Of a stretch of 64,000 bases of DNA, positions 26 through 42,538 are shown in pieces (position 1 is the stretch's first letter; the number at the start of each line of letters is the position of its first letter). The notes beneath the pieces were generated by a model. It saw only the letters and a list, made by a program, of their open reading frames with translations, was not told where the DNA came from and did no database searches. This stretch comes from Candidatus Poseidoniales archaeon (GTDB lineage: Archaea; Thermoplasmatota; Poseidoniia; Poseidoniales; Poseidoniaceae), in NCBI GenBank assembly GCA_003602575.1, contig QQRY01000059.1, positions 145 to 64,144 of the forward strand, in the 5' to 3' direction. The translations under genes were made by a program, and so were the position numbers.

Positions 26-3000
26 ATGCGCAGCCACATAGTAGCACTATTAATCTTGATTTTGCTAGGCCAGTCATTATCCAATCTCAATAGTAATAAT
101 CACGATATTGATTCATTAAATGATGATTTAACTGCCAAATCAACACAAAATAATATTAACACAATTGTATCGAACTCAACAAATCTGGGCGTTAATCAAT
201 CTATGAACATAGCAAGTATAGCTGGCTTAAGTGTAATAGACCTAATTATGGATGATGACAATAACATTTACATCTGTTTTCAAATGAGCAAAGGAAATTA
301 TAACTCACCTATTCAAATTGAAAATTATTCTTCAAATTCTAGTGAAGATTTCTATACATATATATTCGCTAAATTTGATTTCAACAGAAGTCTTGTTTGG
401 GCTTTCAACTCGACAAATTTAGGAAGTGATCCTAAAATGAAACTAACATCAAATCAATCCTTAATTATTGGTTCTTCGTATCGTAGCACTCCAAATACAG
501 TTTCGACGTTTTACAACCAAACTGGCACAAAGTCACTTTTTTTGGCGACTATTGACCCAAACGGAAATATGACGCGATTTGTAAAAGCTAACCCACCTTC
601 ATCAATTGGTATTGATGATTTTGCTATCGATTCAAATGGCAATATATACGTTTATGGTTATGTGGGGTGTTCATCATGTACTGCTCCAATATCCTTTGGA
701 ACAAGTACATTTTATGTTGCAGGTTCGACAGACTTCTTTGCAAAATTAAATTCAAGTGGCAATTGGGATTGGGGGATCGGTACAACAGGAAACTCTTGGG
801 CACCTAGTAATTTTTTGCTGAGTGTTGACTCAAATGATGATTTGATTATAGCAGCAGATCTCTCTCTCAAAACAGGAAATTGGGATATTAAAAATTTCCT
901 TGGGGTATCAAGAGCCAATGAACATCCTGAGCAACTTTCTGGTACCAATAATGGTTGTTTATTGATTAAGATGTATAATCACAATCGAACCATTAAATGG
1001 CACACTACAATATATGGAGAATCGGGTGCTACATTAAAATGTAATTCAATTGATGTTGACAGCCAAAATAATATTTTTATTGGTGGCTCATACAATGAAC
1101 CATTTAGAACGCACAATGGTTCTACGAGCCCTTATGGTGGGGAGGATGCATATGTCGCTAAATATACATCAAGTGGAAATTTATCTTGGGTAAATTATTT
1201 TGGAGGAACAGGAGATGACGTAATTTCATCAATCGTAGTTGGAAATAATGGATTTGTTTCTATTTGTGGTTATTCACGTAGTACTACGATGTCTGTTGAT
1301 AATGGATTTTTAACAGGAAACGTTCCAATGATATTCTTTATACAAATGGACAGTTATTCAAATTATACCACTAGAATTTCCTCTAACGGAATAGGAGATG
1401 AATTAAACTGTTTGATTGAATCAAGTACAAATGGAGAGAAAATTTTATTTTATCAATTTACTACACAAACAAGATTTTCTGATATTTCACATACAAGCAT
1501 AAAACAAACAGACCTTGCTATATTTGAGTTTTCTAGCGACTATGATAGTGATGGTGTTTCAGATTACAGGGATTATGATGATGATGATGATGGAATATTA
1601 GATACAATCGATAGATGCCAGCATGGTCAACTTGATTGGACATCAAATACTGTCACAGACCATGATGCTGACGGATGTGTGGATAAAACAGAGGATGATG
1701 ACGATGACAATGATGCTGTGAATGATCAATTGGATAATTGTTCCCTTGGTAGCGTTAATTGGATTTCAAACAATACAAGTGACATGGATAATGATGGTTG
1801 CCAAGATTCTGGTGAAGATGATGATGATGATAATGATGGTTTTATTGATTTGAATGATTTATGTCCTCGGGTTTTTGGAAATTCAACCTATTTGTCTGAA
1901 TTCGGTTGTATAGATACTGATGGCGATACAAGACCAGATATTACTGATTTCAAACCAAAAGATGCTTCTGAATGGAATGACGCCGATAATGATGGCTTTG
2001 GTGATAATGAAGACTTATATCCTTATGATTTTACACAGAACAAAGATTCTGATAATGATTCATATGGAGACAATTCCTATGGAACAGAAGGAGATTATTG
2101 TCCTCAAGTGTATGGAAACTCAACCATTGATGTTTTCGGATGCATAGATTCTGATGGTGATGGTTGGTCAAATGATGGAGATGCAGATAAAGATAATCCA
2201 ACACAATGGCAAGATCGAGACGGTGATGGATATGGAGATAATCAATCCGGAACTAATGCTGATATGTTTCCCTCAGATGGAACTCAATGGATTGATTCTG
2301 ATGGCGATGGTCATGGCGATAATCCATATGGAACACAAGGCGATTGGTTCCCTGATGACCCGACGAGATGGCGTGATTCTGACCAAGATGCTACAGCCGA
2401 TGAAGATGATGCATTTCCTAATGATGGAACGCAACAAGTCGATTCTGATGGGGATGGATACGGTGACAATATCGATGGAAATAGAGGTGATGCATTCCCC
2501 GATGACCCACTAGAATGGAAGGATTCTGACGGAGATCTTTTAGGTGATAATGCCGATATGTTCCCATATGACCCTACTCAAATTGAAGACAGAGATGGAG
2601 ACGGTATGGGTGATAATCCAATGGGAATTGGTGCTGATAAGTTCCCTGATGATGCAACTCAATGGGGAGATATAGATGGTGATGGATATGGTGATAATTC
2701 ACTAGGCAACAACCCAGATTTGTTCATCACTGATGCTACACAATGGGCTGACAGAGATGGTGATGGTTACGGGGATAATCCTCAAGGTAGGCTGTATGAT
2801 TTGTTCCCAGACAACCCGACACAATGGGAAGATGCTGATGAAGATGGACTTGGTGATAATCAATCAGGAACTGATGCTGACCCATTCCTCAACGACTTTG
2901 ATAATGATGGCTACAATGATTCAATGGACATCCTGCCCAAACTAGCAAGTCCAGGTGATCTAGACGCAGACGGATGTCTCGATGAAGTAGATGCATTCCC

Positions 3001-3649
3001 CGAAAACGGTCAAGAATGTGTTGATACAGACGGAGACGGAATAGGCAACAATGGCGATTCAGATGATGACGGCGATGGCTGGACTGATGCTGATGAAGAA
3101 AGGTTAGGAACTGATTCATTGTCTTCAACTGACACTCCTGTAGATAGTTTTGAAATTGTAATTCCAGGAACTGCAGTTGGACTTGGTGCTTGGGATTTAA
3201 TTGGAATATTTGGTGGCGTGCCATTTTTTGCTTGGATAGGTTTTGGATTCGCAACTAGAAATGGTCGCTGTGAACGATATGAAGAATTACTCAAAGAAGC
3301 TACATCAAGAGATGAATTAGAAAAAGTTGCACTACGCTGGGAATACTCGCTAATGCTCAGAATGTTAGGTCCACACCAAGGAATTAGGCTAGAGAGATTA
3401 CGTGCCGAACTAGATGACAAGTTTGAGAATGCAACCTATGATGAAACTGACATTGGTTTTGATCAAACCAGTATTGTAGAAAATGAAGGCAAAGATATTC
3501 CACCAATCAACGATTCATTTGCCGGACCAACAAAGGAAACAGCCGCAACATCAACCGATGAATCTGGCTATGAATGGTTCAAACAAGGTGAAGAGAATTG
3601 GTATCGACCTGTTGATAGTAACGATGAATGGTTCAAGTTTGAAAACTAA
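26..3649 (+). CDS. Large type-I membrane surface protein: signal peptide, repeat-rich N-terminal ectodomain, long thrombospondin type-3-like Ca-binding repeat array, one TM helix, ~150-aa cytoplasmic tail
   Basis: 1207-aa ORF. It has the hydrophobic leader MRSHIVALLILILLGQSLS and dozens of DxDxDGxGD / DxDxDGxxD motifs. The hydrophobic segment GLGAWDLIGIFGGVPFFAWIGFGF is followed by a charged tail. Confidence 0.8.
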   Translation: MRSHIVALLILILLGQSLSNLNSNNHDIDSLNDDLTAKSTQNNINTIVSNSTNLGVNQSMNIASIAGLSVIDLIMDDDNNIYICFQMSKGNYNSPIQIENYSSNSSEDFYTYIFAKFDFNRSLVWAFNSTNLGSDPKMKLTSNQSLIIGSSYRSTPNTVSTFYNQTGTKSLFLATIDPNGNMTRFVKANPPSSIGIDDFAIDSNGNIYVYGYVGCSSCTAPISFGTSTFYVAGSTDFFAKLNSSGNWDWGIGTTGNSWAPSNFLLSVDSNDDLIIAADLSLKTGNWDIKNFLGVSRANEHPEQLSGTNNGCLLIKMYNHNRTIKWHTTIYGESGATLKCNSIDVDSQNNIFIGGSYNEPFRTHNGSTSPYGGEDAYVAKYTSSGNLSWVNYFGGTGDDVISSIVVGNNGFVSICGYSRSTTMSVDNGFLTGNVPMIFFIQMDSYSNYTTRISSNGIGDELNCLIESSTNGEKILFYQFTTQTRFSDISHTSIKQTDLAIFEFSSDYDSDGVSDYRDYDDDDDGILDTIDRCQHGQLDWTSNTVTDHDADGCVDKTEDDDDDNDAVNDQLDNCSLGSVNWISNNTSDMDNDGCQDSGEDDDDDNDGFIDLNDLCPRVFGNSTYLSEFGCIDTDGDTRPDITDFKPKDASEWNDADNDGFGDNEDLYPYDFTQNKDSDNDSYGDNSYGTEGDYCPQVYGNSTIDVFGCIDSDGDGWSNDGDADKDNPTQWQDRDGDGYGDNQSGTNADMFPSDGTQWIDSDGDGHGDNPYGTQGDWFPDDPTRWRDSDQDATADEDDAFPNDGTQQVDSDGDGYGDNIDGNRGDAFPDDPLEWKDSDGDLLGDNADMFPYDPTQIEDRDGDGMGDNPMGIGADKFPDDATQWGDIDGDGYGDNSLGNNPDLFITDATQWADRDGDGYGDNPQGRLYDLFPDNPTQWEDADEDGLGDNQSGTDADPFLNDFDNDGYNDSMDILPKLASPGDLDADGCLDEVDAFPENGQECVDTDGDGIGNNGDSDDDGDGWTDADEERLGTDSLSSTDTPVDSFEIVIPGTAVGLGAWDLIGIFGGVPFFAWIGFGFATRNGRCERYEELLKEATSRDELEKVALRWEYSLMLRMLGPHQGIRLERLRAELDDKFENATYDETDIGFDQTSIVENEGKDIPPINDSFAGPTKETAATSTDESGYEWFKQGEENWYRPVDSNDEWFKFEN
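1538..3100 (+). repeat. Degenerate tandem array of Asp-rich TSP3-like calcium-binding repeats (coding)
   Basis: DSDGDGYGDN, DRDGDGYGDN and DADEDGLGDN type units recur every ~20-25 aa. Cys-containing versions (DHDADGCVD, DMDNDGCQD) occur at the start of the array. Confidence 0.8.
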
Positions 3650-13950: not shown

Positions 13951-16344
13951 TCAATTGATTTTCCTGATTTTTGGAGGCGTTAGTAAAGTGAAAAGTCCTA
14001 TGATTATTACTAATACAATAATAGTGATAATCCATACCGATGAGCCAGATATCTCGAATCCACTCGATGTAGAATCTGATTCCTTCTCTTCTAGTACTTG
14101 TACAATAATTTCGGCTTGATTATTATCTTCATTTCCTTCGACAATATCGCCTCCTCGATCTATTTCAACACTAATTGTTGCAGATTGAATGCTTTCCGGA
14201 ACTTGCCATTCACATGTTACTACAGCAAGTTCTCCAGGTAAAAGAATCGAGATAGTTTGAATATCTACTAAATCTACACCTTGCTGGCATCTAACTGAGA
14301 TTAAAGTAGCCTCTGCATCACCATTGTTTCTAACATAAACACTGATTGGAATGATATCTCTATGATAAATTTCTTTATCTGTAACTACTATTTCTTCTAT
14401 TTCTAAATCTGGCAAAGATTGAACCTCAAGATCTAATATTCTTTGAGCACAGGTAGTCTGGTCACAGATATTAATCTCAACCGGGACAATTGAACCAGGA
14501 GTTGGAGCAATGACTGTTATGTAACCGGTGTCAAGGTCGATAGTAGCCCAACTTTTATTGGTATATGCAGTCAATCCTGTTGAATCAATATCACTGTATG
14601 TGAATGGCACCAGTGTGGAAACTGCTAATTCTACAGGAACAACTGCGGGGAATTCATTTAGCACTGGAGAATCATCGACAGAGTCTATAATTACAATGAA
14701 AGTTTCTTGCCATTGATTGCCTGCTTGATCGCTAACAGTAGTCAATACAGTGGTTGTTCCAGATGCTTCAGATTTGAGTAATATTCTTATGTCATCTTGA
14801 GAAATATCAACCGAAATCAAAGATTCATTTTCAATACTAAAGTCAATCGCTAAATTTTCATGGCTTGTTCTATCATCAACACAACCATTAACAAAAGGAA
14901 TTAGTTTTCCTCCTCCATCTTCTAAAAAGTGTTGAGTGCCAATCAAGTTACAAGTGGGGTCTTCATCCCATTCTAAATCAAATCCTCCAGTTACAGAGAT
15001 ACTAGAAATTTCAAGAGCAGTAGTACTTGAAGTTCCATTCGAATCCCAGTTAAACCAAGCTCTGATTCTCACTTCAATACTATCTGAATTAGAGTCAAGA
15101 TACTGCCCTATGGGTAAATCAAGATTGAAACTACCTAATTGAGCAATAGATTGGTAAGCCACTTCTTGGTTATTGACAAATACTTTCCATCTAGAGTTGG
15201 CAGTGGATAGACCATCCAAACTACCAAAAATTCTACCGTCTATTTTGAGAGAGGGATTATTGTAATCAGCTGAAATTCCTGAAACACATGAGTCGGTACT
15301 AGTGATTTTTATCTTTACAAATTGCTCTTCGACAAGTCCATGATTGGTTAGGGCGCTAAATTCAGAAAATGACACACCATCTGTCGAAGAAGAAACTTCC
15401 ATGACAACATCATCAATGCTAGAATCATCGAGTGAATAATGAACTCTTCCGATGGTTTGACTTGGTGGAGCCTCAATTATCTCACTTGTCCATGAACCTG
15501 ATGCACCAGAAACACTTGGTGATAGCCCGCATTGGGCAACGGCCATATTGTCATTAGTTCCGTTTGAGAGGTCGATTTGGACGATTGGCATTGAGTGCCC
15601 AGAAAAAATAGATGTCGAAGATGCCCACTCACTACCATACCATGGATATTTCACAACTACCTCGATTCCTAATGCATCGACGTCTAATCTGGAATCATCT
15701 GTCGAGCCTACAGAGACATAATCTAAATCAATTTCAATATCTTCAATCATTTGCCAATTCCAATTAGAAATGGAAGTTACATTCTTTGTCCATAGACTGC
15801 CATTCATGTAGTCAATTGAACTTTGAGTATTAACATAAGTAACTAAGTTTTCATAATTATCATCATATTTCATAGTAATTTGGACTTGATCTTGCTCTAA
15901 CTTATCAGGAATATGAAATGCTGCAACAACAGATACTGAAACTAATTCATAAGAACTCATACTGGAAACATCAAATGTATCTAACTCGATTATAGGCCCC
16001 GCTGTATAGGTATATTGCTGGTCTGGAGCGCCTGTTGAGAGGTTCGAATTGGTAGGTGAATTACTTGCCCAAGTAGTCAAAGACTGAAAGTTATCAGGTC
16101 GACTATGAAGCAAAGTCATTCGGTCATCTGCAACCATTGACTCTGTATATTCGGCATTAAGTGTTAGGAAAGATACTCCTGAGTCTGATTGCCAAAGGCC
16201 TGAATCTGAAAAATCTCCCTGAGGGAATAAATCGAAATTAGAAACTGAGTGGACACTTCTAGCACTTGAATGACCGACTAACGGCATAAAAAGCAATATT
16301 ACCAAAAAGGAAACTATCGAAATCCGCTTGTATTTCTCGCCCAT
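13951..16344 (-). CDS. Secreted/anchored surface protein with CARDB-like domain and C-terminal TM anchor
   Basis: 797 aa. Signal-like N-terminus ISIVSFLVILLFMPLVGHSSA. CARDB signature VYVRNNGDAEATLISVRC...EGNEDNN. C-terminus SSGFEISGSSVWIITIIVLVIIIGLFTLLTPPKIRKIN. Confidence 0.75.
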   Translation of the reverse strand: MGEKYKRISIVSFLVILLFMPLVGHSSARSVHSVSNFDLFPQGDFSDSGLWQSDSGVSFLTLNAEYTESMVADDRMTLLHSRPDNFQSLTTWASNSPTNSNLSTGAPDQQYTYTAGPIIELDTFDVSSMSSYELVSVSVVAAFHIPDKLEQDQVQITMKYDDNYENLVTYVNTQSSIDYMNGSLWTKNVTSISNWNWQMIEDIEIDLDYVSVGSTDDSRLDVDALGIEVVVKYPWYGSEWASSTSIFSGHSMPIVQIDLSNGTNDNMAVAQCGLSPSVSGASGSWTSEIIEAPPSQTIGRVHYSLDDSSIDDVVMEVSSSTDGVSFSEFSALTNHGLVEEQFVKIKITSTDSCVSGISADYNNPSLKIDGRIFGSLDGLSTANSRWKVFVNNQEVAYQSIAQLGSFNLDLPIGQYLDSNSDSIEVRIRAWFNWDSNGTSSTTALEISSISVTGGFDLEWDEDPTCNLIGTQHFLEDGGGKLIPFVNGCVDDRTSHENLAIDFSIENESLISVDISQDDIRILLKSEASGTTTVLTTVSDQAGNQWQETFIVIIDSVDDSPVLNEFPAVVPVELAVSTLVPFTYSDIDSTGLTAYTNKSWATIDLDTGYITVIAPTPGSIVPVEINICDQTTCAQRILDLEVQSLPDLEIEEIVVTDKEIYHRDIIPISVYVRNNGDAEATLISVRCQQGVDLVDIQTISILLPGELAVVTCEWQVPESIQSATISVEIDRGGDIVEGNEDNNQAEIIVQVLEEKESDSTSSGFEISGSSVWIITIIVLVIIIGLFTLLTPPKIRKIN

Positions 16345-16554: not shown

Positions 16555-17187
16555 TTATTCCAGTTTATCTTTTTCTATAGAATGACCCATACGGTCAACT
16601 TTAGTTTCAAGATAGGAACGATTAGAATCTCCAACACCGACAACTAATGGAACTCTTTCATACACATCTATACCGTATTCTTTTAGTTGGTTTATCTTGT
16701 TAGGATTATTTGTTAATAGACTAACTTTGTCTATTTTTAATGACTCCAACATCGATGCAGCAATCTTGTAATCTCTATTATCTGCTGGAAGTCCTAACAT
16801 AAGATTTGCATCAAGAGTATCAGCACCTAGATCTTGAAGCCTATATGCCTGGATTTTGGCATGAAGACCTATGCCTCTGCCTTCCTGTCTGAGATATAGT
16901 AAACATCCCCATCCCTTGTCAGAAATCGCTTTTAACGCTGCATGTAATTGAGGTCCACAATCACACCTGAGGCTTGTGAAAGCATCACCAGTCAGACATT
17001 CGGAATGAACTCGAACCAGTACAGGATCTGGGCCTTCCATTTCTCCTAAAGTCAAGGCGACATGGTCAAAGCCAGTCGACGCTTCATTGAATACTCTTAT
17101 TTTGAATTCACCAAAGGCGGTAGGTAATTTAGCTTCACTAGGAATTGAAGAAACTTCTACAACATTGATCTCATCACTTTTCGTCAT
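16555..17187 (-). CDS. ribA: GTP cyclohydrolase II
   Basis: Motifs [21 protein letters not shown] (Zn site) and [11 protein letters not shown]. Confidence 0.9.
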
Positions 17188-17519
17188 TAATTCACCTCTA
17201 TTATAAATCTGAATTCTCCAGATTGATCATTTATGATTTTCATTGAGTGCGGCAATCTTTCAATGAGCATTGGAATATCATGAAGAGCCTCGGGGTCATC
17301 TGCAATAACCTCCAAAACGTCGCCTCTTTTCAAGTTCTTCAATGCCTTCTTGGTTTCAGCCAATGGCACTGGGCAAAAAAAACCTATGACATTTAATTGG
17401 TGTGAAATATTTAATTCTAAATCTATACTTGACACCCCCTTAACATCATAAGGGCATAAATTCTTGCATTTCAACCCATGCATCAGAAATATCGACATAA
17501 TAAATCCACCATACCTCAT
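17187..17519 (-). CDS. TusA/SirA-like sulfur-carrier protein
   Basis: Motif [29 protein letters not shown] (CPxP motif). The true start is probably an internal Met. The stop overlaps the ribA start (TAATG). Confidence 0.65.
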
Positions 17520-17543: not shown

Positions 17544-18524
17544 TTGTACATGGCCAATAACCAGACATCCCCTTCCGCAGCGGAAGATTTGTCATGGAGT
17601 GAAGTATTTGAACTTGGTAAAAAATATCTAAAAATACCATTGGCCCTAGTGTGCGTGGAACTTTTTTACTGGTTTATCACTCAGCCTTCAGATACTTTGG
17701 TTCCTATCCAAATGAGTGAAGCTTGGATTTGGAATGAATTAACAAATTTGATTTACGGAGAAGGGACTGCAACCCTTACTACTCATAATGGTTGGATGAC
17801 ACAGGTTAATCTCTACAATGCTAATTTCCCCGGAAGCCTGGATACAGTCGCATTGTACGTCTCTGATGAATGTGCAGGAGTTCATGAAATGATCTTTATT
17901 TCTACTCTCATAATTATGACTGAAGGAGTTCCACAAAAATTGAAGATACGCTCAGTAATGGTCATGTGTTCAATCGTCTACATTCTAAATATCATTAGGT
18001 TAGTCCTATTCTACCCAATTGCAGCATCCGACTGTCAAATTGACCCGAGCAATGCTGCTTGTCTTACAGGAATTTGGAATTACCACGAGGCTGTATACAA
18101 ATGGGGATTCTTACTATTGCTTGTAGTGATGTGGCTGGTTTGGTTTAGATTTGTTGGTGGCTCCTCAAAGGTCCTTAATTCAAAGAAAAATAAAGAAAAC
18201 TGGAGAATTGGAATTCGCTCAATTTGGGAAACAAAGCATTTCGTTGTAATTGGTTTTGTTATTATGATGATATGTTATGGGATTTTTAGTATTACAACCA
18301 ATGAAATCGCCATGGATGCAAAACAGACTCTAGATTTCTGCTCATTCTCCAACCAATTATCCTCAAGCAGTTGTATTGAAGCACAAAATAATTGGGACAA
18401 TGCAATTGATACCTCTTGGTCATTATCAGCAATTGGATTAGTTGTAGGAGCATTTACAGTTTTCAAATTTGAGAGAAAAAATACTGATGGGAAATGGCCA
18501 TCAGAAATTGATGAAGAAGAATAA
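17544..18524 (+). CDS. Archaeosortase/exosortase-family membrane protein
   Basis: Polytopic membrane protein. It has the Cys motif VSDECAGVHEMIF (C110), the Arg motif YILNIIRLVLF (R152, 42 aa downstream) and a later His motif NYHEAVYKWGF. This matches the Cys/Arg/His triad and the spacing I recall for ArtA. Confidence 0.65.
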   Translation: MYMANNQTSPSAAEDLSWSEVFELGKKYLKIPLALVCVELFYWFITQPSDTLVPIQMSEAWIWNELTNLIYGEGTATLTTHNGWMTQVNLYNANFPGSLDTVALYVSDECAGVHEMIFISTLIIMTEGVPQKLKIRSVMVMCSIVYILNIIRLVLFYPIAASDCQIDPSNAACLTGIWNYHEAVYKWGFLLLLVVMWLVWFRFVGGSSKVLNSKKNKENWRIGIRSIWETKHFVVIGFVIMMICYGIFSITTNEIAMDAKQTLDFCSFSNQLSSSSCIEAQNNWDNAIDTSWSLSAIGLVVGAFTVFKFERKNTDGKWPSEIDEEE

Positions 18525-37567: not shown

Positions 37568-40500
37568 TCACTGATAGGGATTTTCACCTGGTGAATTTGC
37601 ATGTTGTTGTGAAGCATAAGCAGCCGCTTGAGCTTGGTTGAGCCTAGGTAATGACTTTTGGTTTTGAGGAATATTTCTAGGGTTTTGTGGCTTACGCAGT
37701 CCAAAAATAAGGAGACCTATCAGTGCGACAGTGAATATAAAAATTATAACCAGAAGAATCGGATTAATCTCACTAAATCCTCCTAGAAGTCCACCTGAAG
37801 ATTCTTCCTCAACATAGAAGGTGTCTGTCTGAGCAGTCGGGCCATTAATGATTACAAACTCAATCCACATTGTACCTTCTCTGTCGGGGCTCCACTGATG
37901 TGAAAATATTCCAGTCCCACCCGATTGTATTTCGATTTCTTGTGCATGAATCCTAGTTCTTGCACCATTGCTTTCCACTCTCTCTACAATAAGTTGAGCA
38001 AAACCAGAAGCTTCACCTGAATTTTTAATCAATACTGCCAGTTCTACATTTTCGCCTACTGAGATGTCTCGTGATGGTGAAATCTCTGGTTCTTGGAATA
38101 CGAACTCTGGAACTTGCTGCTCTAATTGCCAAATACTCAAAGGTGCATCAATTGCATTGAATTCTGAACTTATATCCTGTCCAGACATATCCTTCCCAGT
38201 AACCCAAATTCGAAGCTCTAATGCTTGATTTCGTTCTTCTTCAAGAATTGCATCTTGTAAGTTTAGTGAAGCAAATAATGGAATTTCTTGCCCATATGGT
38301 TTACCACCTAATAATTCAAGGTTAGATGAACCATTGACTACACTATTAGTCAACATACCAAATCCGGATGGATGAACTTCCCAGTTAAGTTGTAGTGAGT
38401 CAACATCTAAATAATCAGATTCAGAAATTAATAGTTCAATTTCAAGTTCAGACCAATCGGATTCATAAATTAACTCATTGACTGCAGGATGATTAATTTT
38501 AACCATCTCTGGAGGAGAATCATCAATGACAAACCACATTAGAGGGTTAACTGGTTGTTTAATCGATGCACCATTAGGAGAGTTACGAAGAGACACCTCG
38601 AAATAATAAGAATTCGTAATCAGAGGAGATATGATAGTACCGTTAAAAGAACCATTAACGAAATCTACTTGTGCTTGGTTTCCACCAATTTCAAACAATA
38701 AATCCAGTGATTGGTTGACACTTCTACCAGTCATCGACCAAACTATCTCGCCCACGACATTCACATCTTCACGTGGTTGTACCCAGTGAGCATCGCCGGA
38801 TAGCAACTGATTATTTACTGTAAATTCTAAAGATGATTTGTCTATTGACATCTCACCCGAGAATCTCCAATCCAAATCATATAACTCCAAGAGGGTCGAT
38901 TGACCGTTCAAATCTGAAATCATTATGCTAGGTCTTCGATAGATACTGTCATCTGGATCAAAGCCCCATTGTAATTTGAAATCAATAATAAATTTACCAT
39001 TTGATGCAAATATATCATCTCCTGAATCACTAACTATTCTACAACTCTCGATGCTTATGTAAAGTGTTGATGCTGTACAGACATTGCCGTCTCGGTCCCA
39101 AATGATTGTAGAATCATCAGGTTGATTAGATGATAAATCGAATTCAATATGATTGATATCTGTTATTCCATTCTTATCCCAAATCGGGATTTCTAAATTT
39201 ATCATTTCACCTGGATGTAGCCATGTATCAGGCCCGAGGCCCCAAGTCAATGGGTCATAGCCTAATTGTGGTGAACCGTCGTTGCTAATCTGAAGGTGGT
39301 ACAATGGAGATGTAGAATTACCAGAATTCGAAAGTAAATTACCTGCTGAATCTGCAATTTCTAGCCAACCGATGGAATATGAGCCATCATTTGCTTGAGA
39401 TGTATCCAAATCGAATCCATAATTTCCTTGTAACAATGTCAAATCATTTGGTTGTATAAGATCACTGACTTGTACTTCTTCAATCTGCATCAAATTATCA
39501 TTATTAGAGTCATGCTCCCAAGAATTCCAGAAATTAATTTTTGCATGTGTAGGTAAAACCGGTCGGTCTGAAATGGTAAATTCTAATTGAGTTGAAGGAG
39601 ATGCTTCAACATGGTCGTATTCATCTATATTCATGTACAATAATTCTGGCGAAATGGAATCAAAACCGAAATTCGCTGAACTAGGTACCTGATAAGATAC
39701 AGCCTGACCTTGGAGAGGCATTAGTTCTAATTCGACCAAAACATTACTTTCATCAGATGGAACAACCCAAGGAATCGAAACGATTCCATCATTGATAATT
39801 GTGGATGTAGAATATTCATTACCTTCAATCAATAATCTAACCAATACTTGGCCAGTCCTAGGCGATGACATCTCGCTACCTTCAAAACCTAATTCTGCAA
39901 TAACAGTGACCGGCTCACCAGATTTTAGATATGGATAATCATTATCAGAATTTATTCCATTTAGTCCTTCAACATACCAATCGTTCAGAGAAATATCATT
40001 CTCAACTCCATTTGAGTTACCCAGTCCAAACAATTTGCTAACAGGAAGCATAGGTCCGCTGGATGATACCAAATTTGCAGATACCACTAGAGACTCTTCA
40101 TCATCCCACTGAATAGGGAACTTGAATCTGTGATTAAATTGAAGAATTGTCCCACTTTCTACCATTGAAATACTTCCACTTTGGCCTAAATCGCTCCACA
40201 TAAGTCCAACACCTGATTGAATACAAGAAGTAATTCCATTGCCGTATAGAGGCATTGACAAAATAGGGCATCTAATTTGACTACTATGGTCTTGTCCTAC
40301 CAAATTTAAATCAATCAACCAAGAATTAGAACGAGAATAATCTCCAGGGTTAGTAATTCCAATTCCCGAAAAGTCGAAGGTACTAACCACATCTATCCAA
40401 TCTACTGATGGAGTGAAAGTATCTGTGACGTTAACGACCTCTAGAGATACTGGGATAACAGATGCTTGTGAAGTGATTCCATTTACTGTTAGAACAATGG

Positions 40501-42538
40501 AACCGGTCCCCAACATCCTAACAGGCAGTGAAACTTCTTTACTTCCAGAAACCGAAATAACTGACCCTAATTGATTATTTACTCCCAAAACTAAACTATC
40601 GGTTGCCAAGAAGTCAAGTGTGATAGAATCGTCATATATAGCCATCAATCCACCCATGTGAACGTTGGTTGAAGTTGATGATGAGCCGATTTTAATCGCA
40701 ACTTCAACGAAATTCAATCCATTGAGATTAATCGAGTAAACAGCCTGAGAAAGGGCAGTGTTGATATTTGAAATATCTCCTGCTGATAATTTAATATCCT
40801 GAACCGAAGTCATAGTGTCCAATGTCTTGGTAAGAATATCCTGCCCTCCAACTGTAACTGTCAAGTATGGATTAATCATTGCAACTCCCGGACTTGCTGC
40901 GACAAAATTGAAAGATTCAATTCCTGAAGATGGCATCATTACTGAAAAGTAAGAAGGAGTAGATGGGGTAGATGGGGATTCTTTCCACAAAGAATCATCA
41001 CTAAATCTATCTTGAATTCCAAGCCTACCAATTCCAGTTTTATCCATAGACCAGTCGGCAAATCCATCAAGACCAATATCTATTTCCAAACCATCTGCAA
41101 CACTAGTTCTAACCAATTCAACATCGAACGTATCCAATGCCCAATTGCCACCAGTTCCAAAAACTCTAAAATGCACTGAGAAATGTGGTTTATCTAGAGT
41201 TTGGAATACATTATTCACCAGGCTGCTCCATGTTTGACCTGAATCTAAACTATACTCAAGTCTAGCTGAACCAGTTAAACTAGTATTAGACTTCATTCCA
41301 ACAAAACCGCTTCTAACTAAGAATTCAGGAGAAGTGGCTGTACCTGATCCACTGATTTGTTCATTAATCCAGTTTGAACTTTGTAGTAGCCATCCTCTAT
41401 CTGCCGGACTAGTAGCGAAATCGTCAACCATTAAACCTTCAAAATGTATACCATTAATTTCTGGTAAAGTACCAGAAGTGGTTTCCATGTAAACAAATAT
41501 TTTAGCCATAGGATATGTTTCCCAATCTATCATTCCCAAATCTAGAGAAGTTACAGTTAAATCTTCAAACCCTGGAATTGTTAGATTGGTTGATGCATCA
41601 ACTAAATCCCATTCAAAAACCGCATCATCTGGAATATATGCATCCATGTACATGAAACCAAAATTGCGAATCTCTCCTTGACCCGTAGCTTCAGGGCCAA
41701 ATGGTTCAGACATCCAGTACCCATCGCCATTTCCTGCACCTCCGGCAGGCGTGATAACAATCTCATCAACCCAAGCGGTATCCGAGCCAGAGTTCACACT
41801 TCCATCCTTAGTGTATGACCAAGTTAGTGTTGATATGGAGGAAGTGATAGAAAATGAGTGCGTTCCTGTAGCAGAGCCAGACCATTGGTTAGTGTATGAA
41901 TATCGAGAACAAGCAGTGTTATCAATGCAAAAATTAAGATAATCAAAACTACCTTCAGAAGATACTTGATAATTGAATGTCCCCGTACCTGCTGGTAAAG
42001 AAGATACATCTAAAGTCATAGAAGTCACTTGATTATGGGTGATAGTTCCCGCTTTAGCAGTCTTCGAACCAACAAGCACATTTGAACTTTGAATTGCCCA
42101 GTTAGATATTCCACTCAATGTCCAATCCGGTGAAAATGAGCCTGATTCAAAATCCCATTTCCATTCTTGAGGCAATAATGATAGTGAAGTACCATTTACA
42201 TCAACTCCGGAATAATTTTGTGAGGCTGAAAAATCATTTGCATCTGTCAAAGAAAAGGCAGTTGAAGTTGGAAGAGAAGACGATTCCACTCCTAAACTCA
42301 ATGTTTGAACTACTTCGCCATCTGGGACTGAAACTGAAACTTTCTCTACCGCACCATCGGGGAATGAACCTATAGACACAGTAGTTCCTTGGCCAATGGG
42401 TGTTGTTGAATCGATGTCAAAATCCGACAATACCGAAATTTCTGGTGATTTTTCGGTAATTACTGGCATTTGGGAAGAAAGAATGAACAACATCACAATC
42501 CCGACGGCCGAAAAAATACCGCGATTCATCAGTCCCAT
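37568..42538 (-). CDS. Giant (1656 aa) surface protein with signal peptide, CARDB-like domain, C-terminal TM anchor and short cytoplasmic tail
   Basis: N-terminus MGLMNRGIFSAVGIVMLFILSSQ. CARDB-like signature GENVELAVLIKNSGEASGFAQLIVERV. C-terminus GGFSEINPILLVIIFIFTVALIGLLIFGLRKPQNPR. Confidence 0.8.
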   Translation of the reverse strand: MGLMNRGIFSAVGIVMLFILSSQMPVITEKSPEISVLSDFDIDSTTPIGQGTTVSIGSFPDGAVEKVSVSVPDGEVVQTLSLGVESSSLPTSTAFSLTDANDFSASQNYSGVDVNGTSLSLLPQEWKWDFESGSFSPDWTLSGISNWAIQSSNVLVGSKTAKAGTITHNQVTSMTLDVSSLPAGTGTFNYQVSSEGSFDYLNFCIDNTACSRYSYTNQWSGSATGTHSFSITSSISTLTWSYTKDGSVNSGSDTAWVDEIVITPAGGAGNGDGYWMSEPFGPEATGQGEIRNFGFMYMDAYIPDDAVFEWDLVDASTNLTIPGFEDLTVTSLDLGMIDWETYPMAKIFVYMETTSGTLPEINGIHFEGLMVDDFATSPADRGWLLQSSNWINEQISGSGTATSPEFLVRSGFVGMKSNTSLTGSARLEYSLDSGQTWSSLVNNVFQTLDKPHFSVHFRVFGTGGNWALDTFDVELVRTSVADGLEIDIGLDGFADWSMDKTGIGRLGIQDRFSDDSLWKESPSTPSTPSYFSVMMPSSGIESFNFVAASPGVAMINPYLTVTVGGQDILTKTLDTMTSVQDIKLSAGDISNINTALSQAVYSINLNGLNFVEVAIKIGSSSTSTNVHMGGLMAIYDDSITLDFLATDSLVLGVNNQLGSVISVSGSKEVSLPVRMLGTGSIVLTVNGITSQASVIPVSLEVVNVTDTFTPSVDWIDVVSTFDFSGIGITNPGDYSRSNSWLIDLNLVGQDHSSQIRCPILSMPLYGNGITSCIQSGVGLMWSDLGQSGSISMVESGTILQFNHRFKFPIQWDDEESLVVSANLVSSSGPMLPVSKLFGLGNSNGVENDISLNDWYVEGLNGINSDNDYPYLKSGEPVTVIAELGFEGSEMSSPRTGQVLVRLLIEGNEYSTSTIINDGIVSIPWVVPSDESNVLVELELMPLQGQAVSYQVPSSANFGFDSISPELLYMNIDEYDHVEASPSTQLEFTISDRPVLPTHAKINFWNSWEHDSNNDNLMQIEEVQVSDLIQPNDLTLLQGNYGFDLDTSQANDGSYSIGWLEIADSAGNLLSNSGNSTSPLYHLQISNDGSPQLGYDPLTWGLGPDTWLHPGEMINLEIPIWDKNGITDINHIEFDLSSNQPDDSTIIWDRDGNVCTASTLYISIESCRIVSDSGDDIFASNGKFIIDFKLQWGFDPDDSIYRRPSIMISDLNGQSTLLELYDLDWRFSGEMSIDKSSLEFTVNNQLLSGDAHWVQPREDVNVVGEIVWSMTGRSVNQSLDLLFEIGGNQAQVDFVNGSFNGTIISPLITNSYYFEVSLRNSPNGASIKQPVNPLMWFVIDDSPPEMVKINHPAVNELIYESDWSELEIELLISESDYLDVDSLQLNWEVHPSGFGMLTNSVVNGSSNLELLGGKPYGQEIPLFASLNLQDAILEEERNQALELRIWVTGKDMSGQDISSEFNAIDAPLSIWQLEQQVPEFVFQEPEISPSRDISVGENVELAVLIKNSGEASGFAQLIVERVESNGARTRIHAQEIEIQSGGTGIFSHQWSPDREGTMWIEFVIINGPTAQTDTFYVEEESSGGLLGGFSEINPILLVIIFIFTVALIGLLIFGLRKPQNPRNIPQNQKSLPRLNQAQAAAYASQQHANSPGENPYQ

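Follow-up and report, generated by a model that had tools for sequence, protein, structure and literature searches.

The window, the whole stretch of 64,000 nucleotides from a Candidatus Poseidoniales archaeon that was analysed here, carries on its forward strand (17544-18524) an open reading frame for a 326-aa polytopic membrane protein of the archaeosortase/exosortase family; its annotated start codon is TTG, with an ATG two codons downstream. The earlier note on this DNA had credited the protein with the Cys, Arg and His motifs of archaeosortases and exosortases, and the three residues are found where it had placed them: Cys110, the putative catalytic nucleophile (17871-17873, +), sits inside an invariant YVSDECAGxHEM motif (DECAG here), Arg152 (17997-17999, +) follows exactly 42 residues further on in an LNxxRL motif (YILNIIRL here) and His181 (18084-18086, +) belongs to a WxxHxxxYxWGFL motif (NYHEAVYKW here). 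None of the three varies among 17 aligned homologues with 52-75% identity. Across the exosortase/archaeosortase family, Cys, Arg and His constitute the inferred catalytic triad (10.1101/2023.06.07.544157). Two pairs of cysteines, C164/C173 and C266/C277, are likewise invariant in the alignment. The loops that carry them are predicted to be extracytoplasmic, the membrane orientation of the enzyme being predicted solely by the positive-inside rule, and the invariance of these pairs in predicted outer loops suggests disulfide bonds. The AF2 model of the enzyme (pLDDT 76) is mostly helical, with about 6-7 long helices and a small beta sheet at residues 76-105; a fold search of the PDB with this model returned no match at E <= 0.001 and no solved archaeosortase or exosortase fold.

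The exosortase/archaeosortase signature of NCBIfam, TIGR04178, matches the enzyme over residues 105-201 with 30.1 bits for a cut-off of 23 (33.6 bits in the scan of the genome), and Pfam Exosortase_EpsH (PF09721) scores it below the gathering threshold (21.6 vs 25.7). When the protein was classified against the Art models, as had been proposed, no Art or Xrt subfamily model was reached in the NCBIfam scan and the enzyme fell into none of the defined subfamilies. The best of these models is ArtD, with 21.5 bits over the Cys-bearing helix against a cut-off of 125, followed by ArtA (TIGR04125, 18.2 vs 75); lower scores include those of XrtG (17.3 vs 102.75), ArtH (10 vs 200) and pacearchaeosortase (7 vs 80). 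At E <= 10, matches were reported for ArtB, ArtD, ArtE, ArtH, pacearchaeosortase, XrtA, XrtG, XrtM and XrtW, each with a score far under its cut-off, and none for the rest of the models covering ArtB, C, D, E, F and H, pacearchaeosortase, heimdallarchaeosortase and XrtA to XrtX. The enzyme shares the TIGR04178 signature region with the short archaeosortases (ArtB to ArtF, ArtH, pacearchaeosortase and heimdallarchaeosortase) but it scores far under their cut-offs and is about twice as long, and none of the anchors tested here showed their signals (VPXXXP, PEF, PIP, PACE-CTERM and Heimdall-CTERM).

The genome, 1.97 Mb in size, encodes a bona fide archaeosortase A (ArtA) elsewhere (TIGR04125, 103.7 bits vs a cut-off of 75), on the reverse strand of contig C50 at about 64.4-65.4 kb (locus L001, 1426-2358), next to the gene of a TM-anchored surface protein of 1233 aa whose cytoplasmic tail is long. 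ArtA is near-universal in the order, being present as a single copy in 145 of the 151 genomes sampled. Eight C-terminal signals of the PGF/PGL type occur in the genome, and the two PGF proteins that were tested pass TIGR04126 (33.1 and 25.2 bits vs a cut-off of 24.5). Like the ArtA of the PGF-CTERM system (TIGR04125; Haloferax volcanii), the enzyme of the window is polytopic, has Cys and Arg motifs that align and a conserved His, is predicted to place a small extracytoplasmic segment ahead of the Cys-bearing helix, and coexists with secreted proteins that have C-terminal TM anchors. In BLASTP and hhalign alignments with the genome's own ArtA, which are weak (E = 0.008 and 0.041), Cys110 pairs with the Cys of CTALQSM (CAGVHEM in the enzyme) and Arg152 with the Arg of ILNVFRN (ILNIIR in the enzyme, ILNVFR in ArtA). 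His181 would be the family His on the strength of the TIGR04178 match that spans it, rather than of a pairwise alignment. Unlike ArtA, the enzyme stays far from the TIGR04125 cut-off in a genome that has a true ArtA, is extended at its C-terminus by about 120 residues, with two TM helices and the two invariant Cys pairs, and has no PGF-like cognate signal that could be assigned to it.

Of the 339 close homologues that a word-indexed search retrieved, the named ones bear the label "exosortase/archaeosortase family protein" or "hypothetical protein" and come from Candidatus Poseidoniaceae (NCBI/JGI). An exhaustive profile search for relatives returned only 115 matches among 1.84 billion representative proteins; the ten remote relatives that were scanned are all TIGR04178-positive and none reaches a subfamily model. 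The gene is single-copy in 75/75 sampled genomes of the window's own family, whose homologues are named Poseidoniaceae, and is also found in both sampled genomes of a second family (f2) and in six genera of a third (f3). Within the 151 genomes of the order, seven f3 genera, with genomes of 1.2-1.7 Mb, lack the gene. In the tree of the neighbouring CARDB protein (see below) these genera form one clade with 100/99 support, and the enzyme was thus lost a single time. The gene order DEAD-box helicase - enzyme - TusA-like - RibA - CARDB (TusA-like at 17187-17519 and RibA at 16555-17187, both on the reverse strand) is conserved across the three Poseidoniales families, and in the enzyme-less clade the enzyme gene alone is missing from the block, leaving the helicase and TusA genes adjacent. 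A literature search brought up no paper joining an archaeosortase with Marine Group II or Poseidoniales. To judge from its sequence, the enzyme is a real member of the archaeosortase family and represents an undefined subfamily restricted to Poseidoniales (Marine Group II).

The window also encodes large surface proteins with membrane anchors, three of which had been proposed to share a short (G/S)F(S)EI motif ahead of the anchor, possibly a sorting signal particular to this lineage. The first is the CARDB neighbour, a 797-aa secreted protein (13951-16344, -; Pfam CARDB, 53.6 bits) with a signal peptide and a C-terminal TM anchor, in which GFEI (14050-14061, within SSGFEISGSS) is followed by the TM segment and then by TPPKIRKIN at the true C-terminal end. 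In the second, a 1656-aa type-I surface protein (37568-42538, -), GFSEI (37766-37780, within GGFSEINP) precedes the TM segment and RKPQNPR, after which comes a cytoplasmic tail, about 44 aa long from the TM segment, that ends in SPGENPYQ. The third, a 1207-aa type-I surface protein encoded on the forward strand (26-3649), has SFEI (3146-3157, within DSFEIVIPG) ahead of an atypical TM segment containing Gly, Trp and Asp, then TRNGR and a cytoplasmic domain of about 125 aa. All three anchor sequences are thus present as quoted in the earlier note, which had also rightly pointed out that two of them continue beyond the basic patch and that none is a PGF, PEF, PIP or VPXXXP signal: no such CTERM model matches them, and TIGR04126 (PGF-CTERM) finds nothing on the three at E <= 10.

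What fails is the idea that the three share the motif beyond chance. The ORFs of the genome (738,858 aa) contain the pattern [GS]FS?EI 26 times, and only four of these occurrences lie ahead of a hydrophobic segment: the three already named and one that is internal to a 496-aa protein. Genome-wide, no surface anchor beyond those of the three window proteins carries it. When the pre-anchor regions of 92 type-I anchored proteins were scanned without bias, FEI was found once (0.52 expected) and F.EI once (0.38 expected), 300 or more tripeptide patterns outscored FEI, and the enriched patterns were acidic/Ser linkers only (e.g. DS.S, DDS and ESS). An HMM of the three anchors, a search that had been suggested as a check, retrieved from the genome just the three proteins used to build it; the next match (E = 0.026) was a generic linker followed by a TM segment. 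As a sorting signal of the lineage the motif is not supported: it lacks enrichment at C-termini genome-wide, which the earlier note had itself named as a ground for refuting the idea, and two sets of orthologues vary at its F and E.

Orthologues of the 797-aa protein read AFTIS, SFDIS, SDSIQ, ETIIS, GVSEG, IEIGDG and others at the GFEI segment, so that GFE is not conserved; what they keep is a loose I[SG]..[FL][WY], the TM segment and [GA]P.K[IV][KR][KR]. Those of the 1656-aa protein follow [ST][ED]G[FLV][LFM].. [IVL][SAT][SEA][IV]N[PST] before the TM segment, with I, V or L where the window protein has F (IASVN, ITSVN, VSEVN), and conserve across genera the tail end (S/V)PG(E/Q)NPY(Q/K). Only in the family of the 1207-aa protein is SFE[IV] conserved, and there it is part of a larger C-terminal module that includes the cytoplasmic domain: P[VI][DE]SFE[IV].[IV]PGT.[IV]GLGAWDLIG, TR..R, LGPHQGIRLERLR and GYEW..WYR..W, in this order. 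This module, whose GLGAWDLIG TM segment is unusual and P-containing, is conserved at 53-71% identity in many genera, in proteins that are 1021-1609 aa long and differ in their ectodomains. Because SFE[IV] is so strongly conserved in this family, the segment is functional in some way, but in that one protein. Compared across their orthologues, the juxtamembrane segments of the three window proteins are unrelated and their (G/S)F(S)EI resemblance is coincidental.

The cytoplasmic tails deserve attention in their own right. The ArtA of H. volcanii can process a tripartite signal placed mid-protein (review PMC6098224), so a tail beyond the basic patch is by itself no proof against cleavage and it is the conservation of the tail that counts. 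Since the tails of the 1656-aa and 1207-aa proteins are conserved, both appear to stay bitopic permanently. The large surface proteins of this genome in fact have, as a rule, long cytoplasmic tails that draw on a few recurring modules, which makes long-tail anchors a general, retained architecture here. The modules include a Trp-rich, hairpin-like end of the form W..DG..W..G.EW, a PLP..GLP.GW[TS]M[ED]QW..YG..[WY]L segment in nine or more proteins and zinc-ribbon ends in six or more surface proteins; tail modules are found in the window at residues ~1030-1207 of the 1207-aa protein and, elsewhere in the genome, in proteins located for example at C39 64059, C37 35997 and C7 10704. Such modules suggest that the surface proteins are coupled to cytoplasmic partners. 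No other anchored protein of the genome shares the (S/V)PG(E/Q)NPY(Q/K) end of the 1656-aa protein (37568-37600 of the window, -), an end that superficially resembles an NPxY-type sorting motif.

Taken together, we consider it likely that the gene at 17544-18524 encodes a divergent, lineage-specific archaeosortase-family enzyme that stands beside a canonical ArtA, with no substrate tied to it, and that the FEI resemblance of the three window proteins is coincidental. Based on its conserved residues, the polytopic protein would be a cysteine endopeptidase of the membrane and perhaps a transpeptidase, with a Cys110/Arg152/His181 centre predicted to lie close to the extracytoplasmic side. If it works as ArtA does, its substrates would be secreted proteins, one or several, whose membrane-spanning C-terminal signal it would cut off and which would probably be re-anchored, and the canonical ArtA would serve the PGF-CTERM proteins of the genome alongside this second enzyme. 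None of the three candidates for a substrate, that is, the FEI proteins, the CARDB C-terminus and a class of LP[SF]x[SG] C-termini, co-varies cleanly with the enzyme.

It is possible, though doubtful, that the enzyme founds a second, order-specific archaeosortase subfamily with a substrate class of its own (the CARDB protein or the LP[SF]x[SG] proteins) for which no curated model exists as yet. The CARDB version, in which the enzyme processes only the neighbouring 797-aa protein as a dedicated pair, we regard as unlikely, although several observations speak for it: (i), the C-terminus of the CARDB protein has a tripartite architecture at a true C-terminal end, and the signal would consist of a juxtamembrane [ST]xx[LMF][WY], the TM segment and [GA]P.K[IV][KR][KR] at the extreme C-terminus. 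(ii), an HMM of this C-terminus finds no other match in the genome, the pattern of a one-to-one relationship. (iii), the two genes are divergent and 0.5-2.2 kb apart in each of the three families whenever one contig carries both, and gene neighbourhood is how dedicated exosortase systems have been recognised (10.1101/2023.06.07.544157). (iv), a W or Y at the start of the TM segment is found in 13 of 14 CARDB orthologues from enzyme-bearing f2/f3 genomes and in 0/20 from enzyme-less ones, in which the juxtamembrane sequence is a different one (often DRGP) and the tail is mostly longer. Dedicated single-target systems such as XrtG, in which enzyme and target are encoded side by side, resemble this case in that the enzyme gene occurs once per genome and has nearby the gene of one conserved secreted protein with a unique C-terminal anchor; they differ in that the neighbourhood here belongs to a syntenic block of housekeeping genes, and genomes that have lost the enzyme still encode the putative target.

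It is this synteny that weakens the pairing. The block from the helicase to the CARDB gene is syntenic order-wide and the enzyme-less genomes miss the enzyme gene only, so the linkage of enzyme and CARDB protein is explained by general synteny. The CARDB protein itself is found, essentially in single copy, in 150 of the 151 genomes of the order, and in all enzyme-less genomes it persists with its TM anchor and with GP.K[IV][KR][KR]. The enzyme-less genomes being one clade, the differences in their CARDB C-termini amount to a single evolutionary event, and the strong conservation of a motif past the TM segment suggests a retained cytoplasmic contact. Two arguments were accordingly set aside. 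That the CARDB C-terminus varies together with the enzyme carries no statistical weight, the enzyme-less genomes being a single clade, and gene neighbourhood is no sign of a dedicated target, since the enzyme alone drops out of a conserved housekeeping block. The 797-aa protein may itself be a major protein of the Marine Group II envelope or one of the S-layer type.

That the enzyme acts on LP[SF]x[SG] C-termini, leaving the eight PGF/PGL-type ones to ArtA, appears quite unlikely to us. Two enzymes and two signal classes would then pair up, and the second class does exist in this genome: seven secreted proteins (C14 19270-20220, C14 57636-59579, C51 65374-66309, C30 14759-16603, C46 29886-33977, C35 3910-7143 and C47 48471-48971) end in an acidic/Ser linker, LP[SF]x[SG] abutting the TM helix and a short basic end. 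These C-termini are non-PGF and match neither TIGR04126 nor any other NCBIfam CTERM model, and orthologues of the C46 protein conserve DS[LIV]PS[IL][SG] (DSLPSLS, DSIPSIG). An HMM of this signal matches 63 of the 75 genomes of the window's family, and the matches inspected were non-PGF in enzyme-bearing f3 genomes (6/6) and mostly PGF cross-hits in enzyme-less genomes (5/8). The same HMM, however, matches 0/2 of the f2 genomes and 7/24 of the enzyme-bearing f3 genomes (12/50 of the enzyme-less ones), and non-PGF LPxx signals such as GLPNLSL, SLPAHGL and SLPFMNL are also present in genomes without the enzyme. A balanced PGF+LPS HMM, searched against 36 chosen genomes, gave equal numbers of matches per genome with and without the enzyme, and its top matches were of the PGF type in 27 of 29 cases in f2/f3 genomes with the enzyme vs 30 of 30 in those without. 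With a single loss of the enzyme, the association has no statistical power. Phylogenetic profiling protein by protein was given up for the C46 protein (1363 aa), surface proteins being too variable: its orthologues are found in just 6/81 genomes. LP[SF]x[SG] shares with PGF the L-P and its position, so these signals may be degenerate PGF-CTERM read by ArtA, or else an undescribed signal class.

Very unlikely, in our opinion, is a non-proteolytic or repurposed relative that has kept the fold for another role and has no C-terminal sorting substrate. This reading is favoured by the failure of every test here to find a cognate signal, by weak scores against all family models and by the atypical architecture (the C-terminal extension, two more TM helices and the conserved Cys pairs), but the strict invariance of the triad residues and of their motif contexts down to 52% identity in 17 sequences argues for retained catalysis. 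We give next to no credence to the reading in which the pre-anchor (G/S)F(S)EI is the cognate signal and the three window proteins are the substrates: three such occurrences would have been a priori unlikely had the motif been fixed in advance, and one family does conserve SFE[IV], but no further anchored protein in the genome has the motif, its F and E vary among the orthologues of the 797-aa and 1656-aa proteins, the distance from motif to TM segment is not the same in the three proteins, whereas known exo/archaeosortase motifs abut the helix (10.1101/2023.06.07.544157), the conserved tail ends SPGENPYQ and GYEW..WYR..W speak against cleavage, and the 797-aa protein retains its anchor in the 53 genomes that lack the enzyme.

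Little is understood of how the cell envelope is made in Marine Group II archaea, which are very abundant and have not been cultured. Alongside an ArtA that nearly all of them possess, their genomes encode a second archaeosortase, an orphan, which belongs to the core genes of one family and disappeared a single time, in a clade whose genomes are small. Nothing in this enzyme departs from the known archaeosortase kind, and it offers a concrete target for work on envelope biogenesis. The negative result on the motif keeps a spurious "FEI-CTERM" signal out of annotation, and the large surface proteins of this genome are for the most part not sortase substrates but permanently bitopic proteins whose cytoplasmic tails are modular. 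Should the second archaeosortase prove to have its own substrate class, it would add a new pair of Art subfamily and sorting domain in very abundant archaea of the surface ocean.
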